Below are positions 7,508 to 13,694 of a stretch of DNA of 38,215 bases, piece after piece. The stretch covers positions 1-38,215 of IMG/VR virus record IMGVR_UViG_2671180710_000023. The stretch is one strand, 5' to 3'. This stretch comes from a virus. Its lineage: Duplodnaviria > Heunggongvirae > Uroviricota > Caudoviricetes. A program made the position numbers and the translations under genes. The notes under the pieces were generated by a model. The model saw only the letters and a program-made list of their open reading frames with translations, was not told the origin of the DNA and made no database searches. How positions within the stretch are numbered: position 1 is the first letter of the stretch; every line of letters begins with the position of its first letter.

Positions 7508-8388
7508 ACACTCCTCGTCAGTATTCTGGCGGCCATTGCACTTAATCCCGGAGACATGCGGTTGAATGCTGTGCCGGCGGCGTTAAGCTGCCCGGAAACG
7601 GTATCCAGAGCACCTGCAATATTTCTTTTGTCCACACCACTCAGCGCCGACTGCGCCTGCTGTACATACGTGGCTGACTCACTGGCTGTTCTGGCCAGAC
7701 TGATGGCATCGGGCATGGATTCAGAAAGTGCATTAAACGCCGGAACACTTTTCCCCAGAGCCCCGGATATATTACCCAGTCCGCTCATCAGTCCCGGCAC
7801 ACGGGTCAGCGCGACAACAGGGTTACCCTTCATTTTCTGCGCCACCCGAACGGCACTGATAGTGGTCTGTAGTACAGACTGCGCCTGTTTCGCATAGTTG
7901 ACGCCGTTACGGACGAACTGAGCCACCCCGGAAGGCGATGGAACAGCACCAGATATGGCCCCGGCACCGGGAACCTGCCTGCGTATTGCCGGCGGTTGCA
8001 GAGGATTTTTCGGGTCACCGGTGTATTCCCGGAGAGACACGGTGGCACTGACAGCCAGCACGTTACCGGTGCTGTCTGTCTGCTCGCTGGTTGCGGTCAC
8101 ATCGGTAATCACGAACCAGCCGCGATAGTCACCGTTGCCGAAGACCAGCGCCAGTGCCTGATGGGCCTTCATGGCTGTTCGCACTCTCGCCAGCTCCACG
8201 TCGGGCACACAATAATGCTGATGGAAGACCAGGCTTATCTGGATTTCGTCCAGCCTGTCGCCGACGAACTGCAGGCCGGGTTTACCCTCGATGCGGGCAT
8301 GCTCCGCATAATCGACGCCAAACGTGGCCTCGAAGCCGTCCCAGTAGGTAATCAGTTCAAACTCAATATCACCCAGTACGGCAAACAT
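7504..8388 (-). CDS. Tail protein downstream of tape measure (Mu N / DNA-circularisation-like or gpU-like)
   Basis: 294 aa directly after the tape measure gene (start overlaps TMP stop); Ala/Gly/Ser-rich C-terminal half; assignment by position. Confidence 0.45.
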   Translation of the reverse strand: MFAVLGDIEFELITYWDGFEATFGVDYAEHARIEGKPGLQFVGDRLDEIQISLVFHQHYCVPDVELARVRTAMKAHQALALVFGNGDYRGWFVITDVTATSEQTDSTGNVLAVSATVSLREYTGDPKNPLQPPAIRRQVPGAGAISGAVPSPSGVAQFVRNGVNYAKQAQSVLQTTISAVRVAQKMKGNPVVALTRVPGLMSGLGNISGALGKSVPAFNALSESMPDAISLARTASESATYVQQAQSALSGVDKRNIAGALDTVSGQLNAAGTAFNRMSPGLSAMAARILTRSV

Positions 8389-10853
8389 CAGCTGTACTCC
8401 TTACGTTGTTTCTGAGCCAGCAGACGCTCCAGCATTTTTTCCAGCTCATGCAGGCTCATATTCAGGGCACCAGCCAGCCCGGCAGGCGCTGCGGTTTCCT
8501 TACCATTGAGGAAAAACTGAGGATTAAAGCTGACCTGGATACCGCCAGACGCTCCACCGCCGGTTGCCGTTGCGCCACGGCCTGAATATCCGGCAGCCAT
8601 GATTTCCGGCGACGGGATACGGGGAACATCCGGTGTCATTTCAGCGGCCAGGCGCTGCCCGGCCAGTGCAGCAAGCGGAGTGGTTCGTTGCAGGCCAATG
8701 GCGGCACCCTGCGCGATATTGTCACCAAAGCCTATAAACACGCGACTCGGTGAATGGATGCCCAGCTTTTCGCTGAACCAGTCACTGATGCTGTCACCCA
8801 TTCCGGTTATGCTGGTTTTCAGTGACGCCCATTTGTTTCTGATGCCATTTATCAGCCCGTCAATAAGATGACCACCGAAGTCGGTGAATTTCGCCGGCAA
8901 ATCAACGCCGAGATATTTCAGCGCAGCCGCAAAGGCTTTATAAAGCAGACCTGCCGGAGACCAGTTAACCAGCAGTTTACCAGTTCCCGCGATACCGCCG
9001 TTAAAGGCTTCCTGGATGTCAGCCCAGCGCTGTTTAAACCAGCTACTGACCGCGCCCCAGTTGCGGTAGATAAGGTAAGCTGCTGCCGCGACGGCGGTGA
9101 TAGCGAGACCGATGGGATTCATCATCAGCGCCCGGCCAATCCAGAGAACGGCACGCCCGGCGCTCATAATTCCGCGAACCAGCCCCCCTGAGAGCACACC
9201 ACCCAGTGTTCTGGCTCCTCTGGCGACAGCACCAAAGCCTGTCACCAGCCAGCGGAGTTTACCGCCTTCCCCCAGTGCGAGCGTCAGACGAAGCCAGTTG
9301 GCCCGAAGTAAAACAGCATTTTTCCAGACGCTTACAAAGGGGGAAAGAAGGAGATTCAGCCCAAGCTTGAGACCGATAGTGGCCATCCTGAAAGCGAGTA
9401 ATGCGCCCACAACCTTTATGGTGCTGCTGACGAGCTGCGGATTTGCCGCTATCCATTTGCCAACACTGTCCATTAAAGGAATAAATGTTTCACCCAACTG
9501 GAGCAAAGCCGGACGCAAGGATTGCCCGATGCTGATAGCAGAATCATTAAAGCCGATCTGCATTCTGCGCCAGCGGCCTTCAAGCGTATCATTCTGCTTT
9601 GCAGCATCCTTATCCAGGGTAGAAATTGCAGCCGGAGCATTCATTTCCTGCTTACTGGAAAGGTATTTATCCCAGCCCTGTCGCATTGACAGTAAATGGT
9701 TGACAGTCTGAATATCGGTAAAGACCTCAGCCAGACCAAATGACTCCATGAGTTTCTGCTGACCTTCCTGATCGCCTCTTGCTCCTGCAGCTTTCCATTG
9801 CTGCAAAAACGTTTTGCCTTTACTGTCGATAAAACGGTTGGCAATCATCAGTGAAGCTTCGTACTGCGAAAAACCCTGAGCGACGTAATTCTGCATTGAC
9901 CCCTGGTAATCCACCCCGGCTTTAGCATATTTCTGGATGGTATCTCCGCGGCCCATTGCTGCCAGCCAGTTGGACATATTGGTGACCGCTTCCTCTGCAG
10001 AGCCACTACCTTTACCGACCTCCAGACTGGCAACAATCTGGGTAATCGCATCTTTTCCATAAATACCACGAGCAGCGAAGGCTTTAGCCATACCGGGTAA
10101 TGCTTTTGCCATATCCTTCAGCTCAAATGATCCAAGTTTGGCTCCTGTTGCCGCAATACCAAACGCCTGTTCAAGTTCTTTCGCATCAGTGATTCTGAGT
10201 GCATCGCTGAAGGCATAAGTCATTTTGGCAAGGTCGGTCATATCGGCTTTGGTTGCTGTAGCGGTCTTTCCAAGCATCTCTGCAAACGTTGCTGCCCGTT
10301 CGGGGGCCATACCATCAGCGACTAATTGTCCGACTCCCCCTAACAGAGACTCCTGCAGTTGGTTAACCTTCAGCGAGGCCTGTCTGATAGCCTGGCCAAT
10401 TGCACGTTCCTGTTTTGCATCCAGGTCTCCTGTGACACTGATATCCCGTAACTGTGATTCAAACGAGGCATATTGTTTAACCGAGGCCATGACCGGTGCG
10501 CCCAGCGTTCTGCCAATAGCATAGGTTTCTGCACCCTGACCATAGAGCGCCAGGCGGTTAGCCTTCAACGCATCACCGGTGGCTGATACTGCTGACAGAC
10601 GGCGCTGCTGACGTTCAATTTGCTCCATGGTGCGGCTTACCCGCAGCAACTCGCTGTTGAGACGCTGCATCCGGGAAGAACCCAGTTGACCATAACGTTC
10701 TGTTGCCCGGGTTAAGGCATTCTGGCGTTCCTGCAGACGGCGGGAGGTATCACCAAGGGAATCAAGGGCGCGTCGGGTGCCACTGACGGCTGAGCGGAAG
10801 CTGCTCCCGACAATGCCGCCAATAATGACGCCGACTGAAAATTCACTGGCCAC
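8388..10853 (-). CDS. Tail tape measure protein
   Basis: 821 aa, largest tail ORF, Ala/Gly-rich with helical repeats and hydrophobic segments; follows chaperone gene. Confidence 0.8.
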   Translation of the reverse strand: MASEFSVGVIIGGIVGSSFRSAVSGTRRALDSLGDTSRRLQERQNALTRATERYGQLGSSRMQRLNSELLRVSRTMEQIERQQRRLSAVSATGDALKANRLALYGQGAETYAIGRTLGAPVMASVKQYASFESQLRDISVTGDLDAKQERAIGQAIRQASLKVNQLQESLLGGVGQLVADGMAPERAATFAEMLGKTATATKADMTDLAKMTYAFSDALRITDAKELEQAFGIAATGAKLGSFELKDMAKALPGMAKAFAARGIYGKDAITQIVASLEVGKGSGSAEEAVTNMSNWLAAMGRGDTIQKYAKAGVDYQGSMQNYVAQGFSQYEASLMIANRFIDSKGKTFLQQWKAAGARGDQEGQQKLMESFGLAEVFTDIQTVNHLLSMRQGWDKYLSSKQEMNAPAAISTLDKDAAKQNDTLEGRWRRMQIGFNDSAISIGQSLRPALLQLGETFIPLMDSVGKWIAANPQLVSSTIKVVGALLAFRMATIGLKLGLNLLLSPFVSVWKNAVLLRANWLRLTLALGEGGKLRWLVTGFGAVARGARTLGGVLSGGLVRGIMSAGRAVLWIGRALMMNPIGLAITAVAAAAYLIYRNWGAVSSWFKQRWADIQEAFNGGIAGTGKLLVNWSPAGLLYKAFAAALKYLGVDLPAKFTDFGGHLIDGLINGIRNKWASLKTSITGMGDSISDWFSEKLGIHSPSRVFIGFGDNIAQGAAIGLQRTTPLAALAGQRLAAEMTPDVPRIPSPEIMAAGYSGRGATATGGGASGGIQVSFNPQFFLNGKETAAPAGLAGALNMSLHELEKMLERLLAQKQRKEYS

Positions 10854-11027
10854 GGTGGCTATCCTCTGAAAGCAAAAAAACGGAAGGGAAGTGTCTGAAC
10901 CCCATGCAGAACAGCCGCGACTGGCGGCTGTTAAGTGATACGTTGTTACTGATTGTCGCCGAACTCGCTTTTGATTTGCTCTTCAGCCTGCTCCAGCCAC
11001 ATCTCCAGATCGTCAGTATCGAGGGCA

Positions 11028-11363
11028 TCAATCTCCCCCGGCTGAAACCTGAACCATCTCGCCAGCAGGCCCTGCGCCTGCATCAGTGTTTTTGTCGCTC
11101 TTGCCCAGCCCAGTGATTTTCTGAAATCGTTTCTGCAGCTCCATATAGTCGGCAAGATCCATGTTATCGAGGTCTTCCGGGAGGATACCGGTGCTACGGG
11201 CAATCAGTGGTTCGTCCCAGTCTGCCGGGTCTTTGTTGATTTTGCGCACCTGCTTCAGGTCTTTTACTGTCAGGCGTTTCAGTTCAATCTGTTCAATTCT
11301 GGTACCTGCAGCAGTGGTGAAAGGATAAGACAGCGTAAAAGTATCTGGCTGGGTCTGTGACAT
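11028..11363 (-). CDS. Tail assembly chaperone (frameshift-prone gene upstream of tape measure)
   Basis: 111 aa acidic protein between tube and tape measure genes; overlapped by an out-of-frame ORF (10946-11203) with a plausible acidic C-terminal extension. Confidence 0.55.
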   Translation of the reverse strand: MSQTQPDTFTLSYPFTTAAGTRIEQIELKRLTVKDLKQVRKINKDPADWDEPLIARSTGILPEDLDNMDLADYMELQKRFQKITGLGKSDKNTDAGAGPAGEMVQVSAGGD

Positions 11364-11461
11364 GATCGTGCTCCTGTGTAAGTTCAGGGCAGTATGTCTG
11401 GCGGTGGACGTAACGGATATTAAAGGAGATTAAGAAGAAAGGGGCCGGAGCCCCTGTGATA

Positions 11462-11743
11462 TCAGCAAGTGCGAAACCCCTTGCAGTTACGCAGGAAAGC
11501 GATGAGAAGCGCCTTTCCCTCAGATTTGCCGGTGCCGGAGAACCAGTGGTCGGGCGGCTCCCATGCTTCAATCAAATCGGCCAGTTTGCGGGCCTTTGAA
11601 CGTGTGCAGTCAATCGGGTCATTGGTTTTACGGGTATTAAAAAGGGTTTCCACCCCCGGAATATCGAGAAGGGTAAACCACGTACCGTTCGACATGCCCA
11701 GTGCTGCACATCGACCTCCTTTATCAGTCAGTTCAACACTCAC
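11462..11743 (-). CDS. Hypothetical protein (between tail tube and chaperone genes)
   Basis: 93-aa ORF in operon context; no recognisable motif. Confidence 0.35.
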   Translation of the reverse strand: MSVELTDKGGRCAALGMSNGTWFTLLDIPGVETLFNTRKTNDPIDCTRSKARKLADLIEAWEPPDHWFSGTGKSEGKALLIAFLRNCKGFRTC

Positions 11744-11745
11744 TG

Positions 11746-12267
11746 TCAGCCCCCGATATTGATGCGGTAGTCGGTCAGTTGATCAACGCCACCGACGCGG
11801 AAGATGTTGGCCAGATAGTCCAGCTCCAGCAGCTCTTCACCATCCAGTACCTGTTTTATATACGTGCAGGTGAAGCTACTGGAGAACTCGGCGTTCTCGT
11901 GCTGTTTGAACGTTCCCATCGGGTTCTTCTTGAACATAATTGTCAGGAAGGTGACCAGCGGGATTTCGTCAATCAGCCCCTGCGAGCTGTAGCGCTGGAC
12001 GCTGGAACGACACTGCAGTGCCAGCGACTTATACGGGTTCGCGGCAGACAGCATCGCATCGCGGTAAAAGCTGTTCCATTTGATTTCGCCTTCCAGTTTG
12101 TCGAAGCCAGCCGGGAGCTCCACCTTACCCACCATTCCCAGTGCCTTGTGCTCCTGCATAATCATGGAGACATCGGGGAGTTTAACTTCCTCAGCCCGTC
12201 CCAGCAGGTTAGTACCATCCAGATAGATGTTGGCATTCGTGATTCGGTTTATCTCAATCTTTGACAT
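11746..12267 (-). CDS. Tail tube protein (P2 FII / Mu M-like)
   Basis: 173 aa immediately downstream of sheath gene; stop/start abutting. Confidence 0.75.
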   Translation of the reverse strand: MSKIEINRITNANIYLDGTNLLGRAEEVKLPDVSMIMQEHKALGMVGKVELPAGFDKLEGEIKWNSFYRDAMLSAANPYKSLALQCRSSVQRYSSQGLIDEIPLVTFLTIMFKKNPMGTFKQHENAEFSSSFTCTYIKQVLDGEELLELDYLANIFRVGGVDQLTDYRINIGG

Positions 12268-13694
12268 CAGTTGCCCCCTTTCAGGGTTAACAGGTATTCC
12301 GAGGTGATTTCAGTCTCAAACGTCAGTCGCTCCAGCGGCGGTGGTGGCGTATATTTGTAGCTCAGCAACAGGTGCCCGGCGGCCAGCTCCGTCTCCGGAT
12401 TGCGGGCCGGATCAAACCAGCAACGGAAGCCCAGTACCGCACCATCACCAGTCATTTTGCGACCGTAGGCGTTGACCGACTCCGTCAGTGCATCAATCAG
12501 CGCCTGAGTAATCGGCATGTCGATGTACTGCTGGCTGAAGTAACGAATGGACTCGTTGATCACATCACCGGTGCGGCGAACGTTCTCAAAGTTACGCATA
12601 TGGGTGACCGTTGGCCATGCCGCCGTCCGGTTACCCCACAGACGAAGGCCGCTGCCGTAACTGCTGAATACCGTGGTGATCCCCTGTTCGTTAAGCAGGT
12701 TCACCTCGCTCTGCGGATCGTCAATCATTGCCGACAGCTGGCGCTCCACGCCGGTGATCCCCAGAATTTCCTGATTGGAGGATGACCACCAGTACCCTTT
12801 GTCCAGGTCGACTTTGGCACGCAGGCCCGCCGCACGCTGGCTCAGTGGCTCCAGACGCTCCGTGTTCGTCACCGGGTCATATACCTTCACATGCGGGTAG
12901 CACAGGCGGACACGGTCAGAGCTGGTATTAAAGTTAATGGTGCCTTCCGGGCCACGTCCCGCCAGAGCCTGCGCAAAAGTGGTACCAACCGGCGCATCAA
13001 TATAGGTTACTGCTCCCAGTTTCTCAGCCATGGCGATAAGCTCAACCGAGACGCTGTTCTGGGTGCAGAATACCGGAGCAATCAGGATTTTGGCGAAGTA
13101 GCCAAACAGGTTAAAACTGTCGTTAAGCAGCTTCATGCCGGTACGGTTGCCTGCAGCGTTAACGGTACCGATGATATCAGCCGGGGTGACTCTGGTCGGA
13201 TCAGCATAGTTATAGCTGGCCTTCACCGTTGCATCTGCAGCAATGCTTTTACCCAGGTTAGTAATCACCCCGGTCTGTGCATCAAGCGAGTAGTCCTGAC
13301 CTTCAACATAAGGCTGACCGTCGCTGTCCGGTTTCAGTACCAGCTGCGCGACCACCGGATTAGCCAGCCGGGCTCTGCCTGTCGCCTTGTCGAACGACAC
13401 ATTCTCACTGACCACAGCGGTTTTATGCACAGACGGATCGAGTACGTTAATGACCAGAACGGTGCCTGCACCATGGTCATAAATCGCATCCAGCGCCTGC
13501 GGAATGGTAAAGCCGGTGAACTGGCTGCCAAATGCCGCCGCGTCTTTCTCAGACAGGCACTGTACCAGCGTATTGACGTCCCCCATTGGTGCGGTACCAA
13601 TCAGGCCAATAACGGCAGATTTCACCGTTTTAACCGGGCGGGCACCGTTTTCCACTTCAATGGTTTCGACGCCATGCAGATAGTTAGCTGCCAT
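12267..13694 (-). CDS. Contractile tail sheath protein (Mu L / P2 FI-like)
   Basis: 475 aa, typical size and position; followed by tube gene. Confidence 0.8.
   Translation of the reverse strand: MAANYLHGVETIEVENGARPVKTVKSAVIGLIGTAPMGDVNTLVQCLSEKDAAAFGSQFTGFTIPQALDAIYDHGAGTVLVINVLDPSVHKTAVVSENVSFDKATGRARLANPVVAQLVLKPDSDGQPYVEGQDYSLDAQTGVITNLGKSIAADATVKASYNYADPTRVTPADIIGTVNAAGNRTGMKLLNDSFNLFGYFAKILIAPVFCTQNSVSVELIAMAEKLGAVTYIDAPVGTTFAQALAGRGPEGTINFNTSSDRVRLCYPHVKVYDPVTNTERLEPLSQRAAGLRAKVDLDKGYWWSSSNQEILGITGVERQLSAMIDDPQSEVNLLNEQGITTVFSSYGSGLRLWGNRTAAWPTVTHMRNFENVRRTGDVINESIRYFSQQYIDMPITQALIDALTESVNAYGRKMTGDGAVLGFRCWFDPARNPETELAAGHLLLSYKYTPPPPLERLTFETEITSEYLLTLKGGN

Follow-up and report, generated by a model that had tools for sequence, protein, structure and literature searches.

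We analysed a stretch of 38,215 nucleotides (nt), hereafter the window (IMG/VR virus record IMGVR_UViG_2671180710_000023). It is a prophage of Escherichia coli that is 99.7% identical to NZ_CP061758, and our subject is its tail assembly chaperone gene together with a second open reading frame (ORF) that overlaps this gene in another frame. Similar DNA is found in 642 of 5426 complete E. coli genomes (~12%), and the relatives of the window are classed as Bcepmuvirus-like, Escherichia phage PhiKM being 86% identical. The chaperone gene, ORF A (11028..11363, minus strand), codes for a gpE-like protein of 111 amino acids (aa), the zero-frame product. The overlapping frame, ORF B (10946..11203, minus strand, from the ORF list), has 85 codons when counted from its first TTG. 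Comparison of related loci suggests that, like most tailed phages, the prophage very probably also expresses an extended form of the chaperone by ribosomal frameshifting from one frame into the other. The preliminary description of this DNA had suspected a programmed frameshift here, with the layout of the E/E+E' pair of phage P2, a shift of +1/-2 and an A-rich stretch as its site; its ORF coordinates, its peptide and the A-rich stretch at 11096-11086 are all correct in the sequence.

ORF A matches PF10109 (Phage_TAC_7) over residues 8-82 with E=1.4e-22 and 79.9 bits, the cut-off being 25. The title of this family, 'Phage tail assembly chaperone proteins, E, or 41 or 14', identifies it as that of P2 gpE and Mu gp41. 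ORF A also matches the tail protein family phrog_166 (E=3.5e-32), and it is a 'phage tail assembly protein' in the annotation of the pipeline PGAP. On the minus strand, the first codon positions of ORF A have coordinates of mod 3 = 2 and those of ORF B of mod 3 = 1; thus, ORF B lies one base downstream of A, in the +1 (= -2) frame. At its C-terminal end ORF B reads ...RWFRFQPGEIDALDTDDLEMWLEQAEEQIKSEFGDNQ, and its C-terminal half carries the match to PF06528 (Phage_P2_GpE), which for the +1 segment of the window reaches 16.5 bits (E=0.006), under the Pfam cut-off of 23. Among homologous +1-frame segments, 10 of 11 match this family at E<=0.05. In addition, hhalign aligned a profile of ten segments of the +1 clade, P2 excluded, with P2 gpE+E' at a probability of 79.5% (E=1.5e-5), and this alignment covers the E' part of the P2 protein, residues 102-136. 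The +1 segment further matches phrog_8286, a PHROGs family of such small ORFs with unknown function (E=3e-32), and in some E. coli genomes the final 45 aa carry the PGAP label 'GpE family phage tail protein'. NCBIfam gave no match for ORF A or ORF B, and a PDB sequence search with the predicted fusion gave none either. Judged from these matches, the C-terminal part of ORF B is probably homologous to P2 E' and a real coding segment.

The chaperone locus is flanked by the genes for the tail tube and the tape measure protein, all on the minus strand, which is the P2-type position. The PF10109 match, the E'-like +1 segment and this position between tube and tape measure support the P2 E/E+E' layout that had been proposed, and the best explanation of the locus is a gpE / gpE+E' pair in an E. 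coli prophage, a BcepMu-like myovirus with a P2-type tail.

To place this pair among its relatives, we compared 127 related loci, which hold 92 distinct sequences, together with relatives from the Burkholderia BcepMu clade and from Ralstonia. Bacterial genomes supplied 41 loci and viral contigs 80, and several phage records were added. Counts out of 92 below refer to the distinct sequences, and positions written as +n take the Met codon of the conserved MDLADY motif as their anchor. All 92 keep the +1 frame open, as do the BcepMu-clade and Ralstonia relatives. The peptide of this frame stays conserved between Burkholderia and Escherichia, including relatives with a differing frame-A tail, and follows the pattern …W….K(T/V)..QA..(L/M)LARWFRFQP(G/S)E(I/L)(D/N).L..(D/E)(L/F)E.WL..A..QIK.E.GD. 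Within the LLARWFRFQP motif the changes are synonymous in the +1 frame (AGA/AGG/CGG for Arg, TTT/TTC for Phe), while in frame A they exchange M/V, Q/P and S/P. The B-frame stop is fixed in most relatives while the A-frame stop moves: it falls at +69 at the earliest and otherwise at +81, +111, +117, +123, +126 or +132, and two sequences run on in frame A to +213, these being in-frame A-B fusions, as in locus L016. The comparison argues that the overlap of ORF A and ORF B is more than chance.

The stops of the two frames also tell where the shift can occur. In the +1 frame the latest upstream stop falls 25-27 nt past the anchor (up to +27) and in frame A the first stop comes at +69; thus, the shift is confined to an interval of 42 nt. 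Inside this interval a +1-frame TGG (Trp, +55; 11107-11105 in the window) is 99% conserved, and the frame-A residue under it is Leu, Met or Val, always NTG followed by G. Per-site entropy peaks upstream at frame-A position 3 (1.01 vs 0.43/0.31 bits) and from +63, about 27 nt past the site proposed below, at frame-A position 1, which is position 3 of the +1 frame (0.66 vs 0.26/0.25). The pattern is mixed between +42 and +63, and the four codons from +30 to +41 are almost invariant at every position. The periodicity and the invariant codons thus put the A-to-B switch in the stretch from about +36 to +55. That the chaperone gene has a programmed frameshift is supported by the PF10109 match, the open and conserved +1 frame and the switch in periodicity, as had been claimed, and on this comparative evidence we hold with high confidence that some A-to-B trans-frame fusion is made. 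The stops and the entropy further delimit a putative dual-coded overlap (11028..11122, minus strand), which would specify, in frame 0, the variable C-terminal tail of the chaperone and, in +1, the N-terminal portion of the E'-like segment.

The sequence of the window over the permitted interval is CAG AAA CGA TTT CAG AAA ATC ACT GGG CTG G, and +1 re-pairing is possible at AAA_C, TTT_C, AAA_A and GGG_C. TTT_C (+36..+39) is the sole +1 re-pairing site common to 92/92. With the codon before it, it forms the cassette CGA_UUU_C (11123..11129, minus strand; CGA 11129-11127, UUU 11126-11124, C 11123), which we propose from its conservation as the slip site. In fact, CGATTTC occurs in 126/127 loci, CGA in 91/92 distinct enterobacterial sequences, and in a 14-sequence DNA alignment CGATTTC is the only fully invariant block. 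Synonymous-codon entropy at conserved frame-A residues is 0.4-1.8 bits in all 26 upstream columns, falls to 0.09 at Arg +33 (CGA 91, CGG 1) and 0.00 at Phe +36 (TTT 92) and stays low after; these are the two lowest values among conserved degenerate columns to that point. Conserved Arg columns elsewhere hold mixtures of CGC/CGT/CGG, and the other Phe column has TTC 53 : TTT 15. The cassette also reaches beyond the close relatives. The Ralstonia phage YO107_2, which is GC-rich and 45% identical, reads ACC CGA TTT CTG with an E'-like ORF in +1, a Salmonella Infantis prophage reads AAA CGA TTT CAG, and the copies in Symbiopectobacterium and Arsenophonus read GGC CGA TTT CGC. All 15 of the 15 Burkholderia BcepMu-clade loci have (TCC/GCC/TCT) TTT CG(C/T) at the aligned Phe, and their open +1 frame reads F-A-A-W…; TTT accounts for 6/40 Phe codons in the structural genes of BcepMu (65% GC). 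A zero-frame UUU followed by a pyrimidine, TTT C at 11126-11123 in the window, is found in 92/92, in the BcepMu clade and in Ralstonia.

Elsewhere in the interval, the codon of AAA_C at +30 varies (ACC, GAG, CAA, GGC, CGT and others), and a GGG_N slip at +51, before the conserved Trp, finds its GGG in 77/92, Photorhabdus having GGA TTG and BcepMu AGC ATG G at this place; we rejected both as sites. The permitted interval holds no X_XXY_YYZ heptamer and no T6 run, as a P2-type -1 signal would have, and between the upstream stop of the +1 frame and the conserved Trp there is no G-run with CGA of the Mu type for a -2 signal. Reasoned from the sequence, -2 re-pairing at the cassette itself fails as well: UUU would pair on GAU, CAG on UUC and, in tandem, AAA/CGA on AGA/AAC, all of them non-cognate. 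Thus, of the +1/-2 shift first proposed, entry into that frame stands by the coordinates, and the shift is better taken as +1 than as -2, since the conserved site allows no -2 re-pairing.

We consider it likely, on the strength of this conservation, that the shift is a +1 slip of peptidyl-tRNA-Phe on the UUU_C of CGA_UUU_C (11129-11123), giving a 138-aa protein of the E+E' type. Most ribosomes would terminate at the ORF A stop and yield the 111-aa chaperone. A smaller share would slip by +1 with peptidyl-tRNA-Phe (anticodon GAA) in the P site on UUU (11126-11124), and the tRNA would re-pair from UUU to UUC (11125-11123). This re-pairing should be favourable because tRNA-Phe pairs with UUU by a third-position G:U wobble but with UUC by G:C. 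Base 11123 would then not be used as the first base of a new codon, and the ribosome would go on in +1 with AGA (11122) as its next codon until it meets the stop at 10948-10946. The predicted fusion, join(11363..11124, 11122..10946), would consist of chaperone residues 1-80 (…ELQKRF) and a 58-aa extension. Translation and homology place this E'-like segment, 58 codons and a stop (RKSLGWARATKTLMQAQGLLARWFRFQPGEIDALDTDDLEMWLEQAEEQIKSEFGDNQ*), at 10946..11122 on the minus strand. A slip on UUU_C predicts the junction peptide LQKRFRKSLGWARATKTLMQAQGLLARWFRFQPGE, in which the frames meet as ...LQKRF-RKSLGW....

The codon before the slip may also take part. CGA is decoded via an I:A wobble, and work on RF2 frameshifting has drawn attention to the stability of the E site. 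As a weakly decoded E-site codon, CGA may favour the slip, and its invariance may thus be an E-site effect; in the structural genes of the window, CGA makes up 8/124 Arg codons. As for the two products, the shared N-terminal domain would bind the tape measure protein, presumably the client of the chaperone, the extension would recruit the tail tube protein, and the efficiency of the shift would set the ratio of the two forms. These roles we infer by analogy with lambda G/GT (PMC5009743) and P2 E/E+E' (AF063097; PMC3931495).

Could the frames be joined elsewhere? Two codons past UUU_C, the window has an AAA_A in CAG AAA ATC (11117..11120, minus strand), a lineage-specific minor candidate in the sequence, and in this window the +1 shift might occur wholly or partly there by a slip of tRNA-Lys. 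Such a slip would yield a 138-aa product with one residue different (…KRFQK-SLGW…). AAA_A (11120-11117) falls inside the permitted interval, perfect AAA->AAA re-pairing is possible on it, and tRNA-Lys is a known slippery tRNA (PMC5009743), but it is present (+42) in just 12/92. Most relatives have CAA, CTC, CAC or GGC at this codon, so it cannot be the conserved signal, and we think a shift on it unlikely. The A-rich stretch GACAAAAACAC (11086..11096, minus strand), which the preliminary description took for the site, had to be given up. A +1/-2 shift on its GAC AAA AAC (11096-11086) could draw on an AAA_A that permits +1 re-pairing, and a database protein, P0003, is fused exactly at this run, most likely through a homopolymer sequencing error. 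Its A5 run, however, is found in 13/92, the others having GAC GAA AAC, AAC CAG GGC and the like. The stretch lies past the point where selection has turned to the +1 frame, a 99%-conserved +1 Trp standing 30 nt upstream, and the conserved UUU_C (11126-11123) is about 30 nt upstream of it; in fact the +1 signal, with Trp codon and changed periodicity, starts upstream of the run. Moreover, a frame-A stop falls at or a few nt past its aligned position in 6 distinct relatives (+69 in one, +81 in five), so that hardly any space, if any, would be left for a shift in them. We thus regard the A-rich stretch as a very unlikely site. At the very end of ORF A, frame A stops in 44/92 before it reaches the G5 run (11035..11039, minus strand, in GCC GGG GGA GAT TGA, 11041-11028), and the run is missing in 38/92. 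The conserved LLARWFRFQP with its +1-synonymous changes and the starts of the PF06528 and hhalign matches also lie upstream of it, which leaves a Mu-like -2 (or +1) shift on this run highly improbable, even though it is superficially similar to the Mu site GG_GGG_CGA (PMC3458567), adjoins the stop codon and is where several database proteins (P0001, P0002 and others) are fused.

Other explanations do away with the shift. ORF B could have an internal start of its own and be translated independently, which is what the 45-aa 'GpE family phage tail protein' (MQAQGLLARWF…) of PGAP implies; such a coding sequence is indeed annotated by PGAP, phrog_8286 consists of these small ORFs, and the record of BcepMu has gp42 as a separate gene. 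We find this quite unlikely: the best start in the +1 frame, an ATG at +79, exists in 37/92, no other start is conserved, and no Shine-Dalgarno (SD)-like sequence stands before that ATG. The +1 conservation, invariant Trp included, reaches 24 nt upstream of it, and in the homologous P2 system E' is expressed solely as E+E' (AF063097 annotation; PMC3931495). Lastly, alternative-frame ORFs of this length are not rare at 54% GC (the ORF list holds many), so that ORF B might be a chance open frame with no product. The comparative data already contradict this: every relative keeps the +1 frame open, its peptide is conserved in both Beta- and Gammaproteobacteria, the periodicity follows the +1 frame and the segment is probably homologous to P2 E'. 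We give a chance frame a negligible probability.

Single-ORF fusions of the two frames exist in public assemblies (P0001-P0007, P0011), joined at differing homopolymers (G5, A5 and elsewhere), and the fusion proteins in databases come mostly from read-assembly sources. In-frame fusions are also present in two genome assemblies, of Erwinia tracheiphila and Apirhabdus apintestini (L016, 1501-1917; L034, 1435-1914). These database fusions are probably indel errors or pseudogenes and not evidence for the place of the shift.

Several points weigh against a +1 slip on CGA_UUU_C. The case rests wholly on comparative sequence analysis. No SD-like element stands at the right (prfB) spacing, the downstream fold is not significant in the single sequence (z=-1.55), and the RNAalifold consensus has no covarying pair (0) at -2.6 kcal/mol. 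In E. coli, the codon that occupies the A site in frame zero (CAG) is common and the one that follows a +1 slip (AGA) is rare, the reverse of the classical hungry-codon set-up; neither a slowly decoded A-site codon nor another stimulator was found at the site, CAG being the A-site codon in the E. coli relatives. TTT is not rare in the window (42 TTT : 33 TTC), and the window's own PF06528 match stays under the Pfam cut-off. Finally, the invariance of CGA could mean that the +1 frame is already read there (GAT TTC = Asp-Phe). Upstream of CGA, where this would need a slip site, none is conserved, and the Asp is not conserved in the BcepMu clade, which has Thr-Pro-Phe.

How does the proposed +1 slip compare with known systems? 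The -1 frameshift of P2 was reportedly described by Christie et al. 2002, and the -2 frameshift of Mu by Xu, Hendrix & Duda 2004. The P2 record (AF063097) gives gpE and gpE+E' with a -1 programmed frameshift at T6G. As in the window, the P2 pair has a PF10109 chaperone domain and sits between the genes for the tube (FII) and the tape measure (T), and its PF06528-type E' extension is the probable homologue of the +1 segment here. The sizes are 91 aa for E and 142 aa for E+E' in P2 vs 111 and 138 aa here. The P2 shift, like the one proposed here, falls on Phe codons directly after the chaperone domain, the P2 site being three alignment columns from ours. Unlike the +1 shift proposed here on a single UUU followed by C, however, P2 uses a -1 tandem slippage on G_TTT_TTT_G (GGT TTT TTG). 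Moreover, P2 E' overlaps the start of T, whereas here E' ends 92 nt before the tape measure gene and the dual-coded overlap is ~95 nt.

In Mu, gp41 and Mu_56 are joined by a -2 shift on GG_GGG_CGA near the end of gp41 (PMC3458567). Like the pair in the window, Mu gp41 is listed with gpE in the PF10109 description, its extension lies in the +1/-2 frame and a CGA adjoins the slip. Unlike here, the Mu event is a tandem -2 slip of tRNA-Gly and tRNA-Arg on G5 near the end of the ORF, with a residue added, while our site is without a G run and cannot re-pair at -2. By inspection, with no alignment run, the Mu extension has no evident resemblance to E'. Lambda makes its chaperones G and GT from a single start in a set ratio; G, the shorter, covers the tape measure protein, and GT in addition binds tube protein (PMC5009743). 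The pair proposed here follows the same functional logic, but lambda is a siphovirus with no sequence similarity, and its shift is -1 on G_GGA_AAG. In a Pasteurella phage with a chaperone of this family, AFS-2018a (L049, 777-1004), the E'-like ORF lies in -1 and the chaperone ORF has an A_AAG_GGA heptamer at its end, which the record leaves unannotated. Judged from these sequences, the gpE family appears to use -1, -2 and +1 shifts, because P2 and the Pasteurella phage go by -1, Mu by -2 and the clade of the window by +1.

The slip itself has its closest likenesses outside tail genes. A +1 shift-prone UUU_Y is the likely site of YopN-TyeA in Yersinia, and PA-X of influenza A is made by a +1 shift on UCC_UUU_CGU with no evident stimulator and at low efficiency (both PMC5009743). 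In these UUU_Y cases (UUU_Ynn in E. coli, YopN-TyeA, PA-X and UUU_CGN in amalgaviruses), as proposed here, a single P-site tRNA-Phe slips from UUU to UUC, there is no evident RNA structure or SD stimulator, and low efficiency is expected. The UCC_UUU_CGC of the BcepMu clade differs from the PA-X site UCC_UUU_CGU in the last base alone. The cases elsewhere concern unrelated genes, and the enterobacterial clade here departs from them in that its slip codon is followed by CAG/CAA/CAT, not by a rare CGN, and preceded by an invariant CGA.

BcepMu (AY539836) has the orthologous locus, with gp41 as the chaperone and gp42 as an E'-like ORF in +1. Its record (L051, 5859-6364) gives gp42 as a separate gene and proposes slippage for gp42/gp43. 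Our comparison joins gp41 to gp42 instead, at TCC_TTT_CGC, and the window has no counterpart of gp43. We lean, if only slightly, towards a wider proposal: that BcepMu-like myophages and prophages of Beta- and Gammaproteobacteria would all express E+E' by a stimulator-less +1 shift on a nucleotide-invariant cassette (CGA_UUU_C in Enterobacterales and Ralstonia; UCC/GCC_UUU_CGY in Burkholderia). Bacteria would then have an equivalent of the PA-X site, placed at the Phe where P2 shifts by -1, the chaperone family having swapped direction in place, and CGA would destabilise the E site and in this way tune the ratio of the two products.

Every gene concerned (sheath, tube, 93-aa ORF, ORF A, ORF B and tape measure) is on the minus strand. 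The tail sheath gene (13694..12267, confirmed by Pfam) is followed by the FII-like tail tube gene (11746..12267; PF04985, E=5e-55) and, on the other side of the chaperone locus, the tape measure protein gene occupies 8388..10853 with a GTG start at 10853 (PF10145, E=1e-15; PGAP and phage annotations). Between tube and chaperone lies a 93-aa ORF (11462..11743, from the ORF list), which matches phrog_1239 (E=7e-48) and, weakly, DUF7739; a terminator-like hairpin with AGGGGCTCCGGCCCCT plus TTCTTCTT comes after it (11440-11455, minus strand). Since BcepMu has merely a ~120-nt gap at this position, the 93-aa ORF may have been inserted into the tail operon as an accessory gene that carries its own terminator. 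A 9-bp hairpin, AACAGCCGC-CAGTC-GCGGCTGTT (10910-10932, minus strand), stands in the untranslated 92-nt gap from the E' stop (10946) to the tape measure start (10853).

Slippage is unannotated in the E. coli, PhiKM and KP12 records. PGAP treats near-identical E. coli sequences inconsistently, with a 45-aa coding sequence in one (L003, 1747-1884) and none in another (L004), and never marks slippage. We found no description of this +1 site in the searchable literature, which did not cover the primary P2 and Mu papers, so that a prior mention is possible. Frameshifting in tail chaperone genes is textbook knowledge, with -1, -2 and +1 all on record, and the event itself is thus unsurprising. The signal is apparently unannotated yet widespread in E. 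coli prophages, and the value of knowing it is practical and modest. With its invariant CGA beside the slip codon, the site lends itself to simple tests of E-site effects in +1 frameshifting. Mapping the shift to one conserved UUU_C would add a natural and widely conserved bacterial +1 UUU_Y site to a short list that holds YopN-TyeA and few others, and the P2 gpE family would then show -1 and +1 sites at an almost equal position of the protein.

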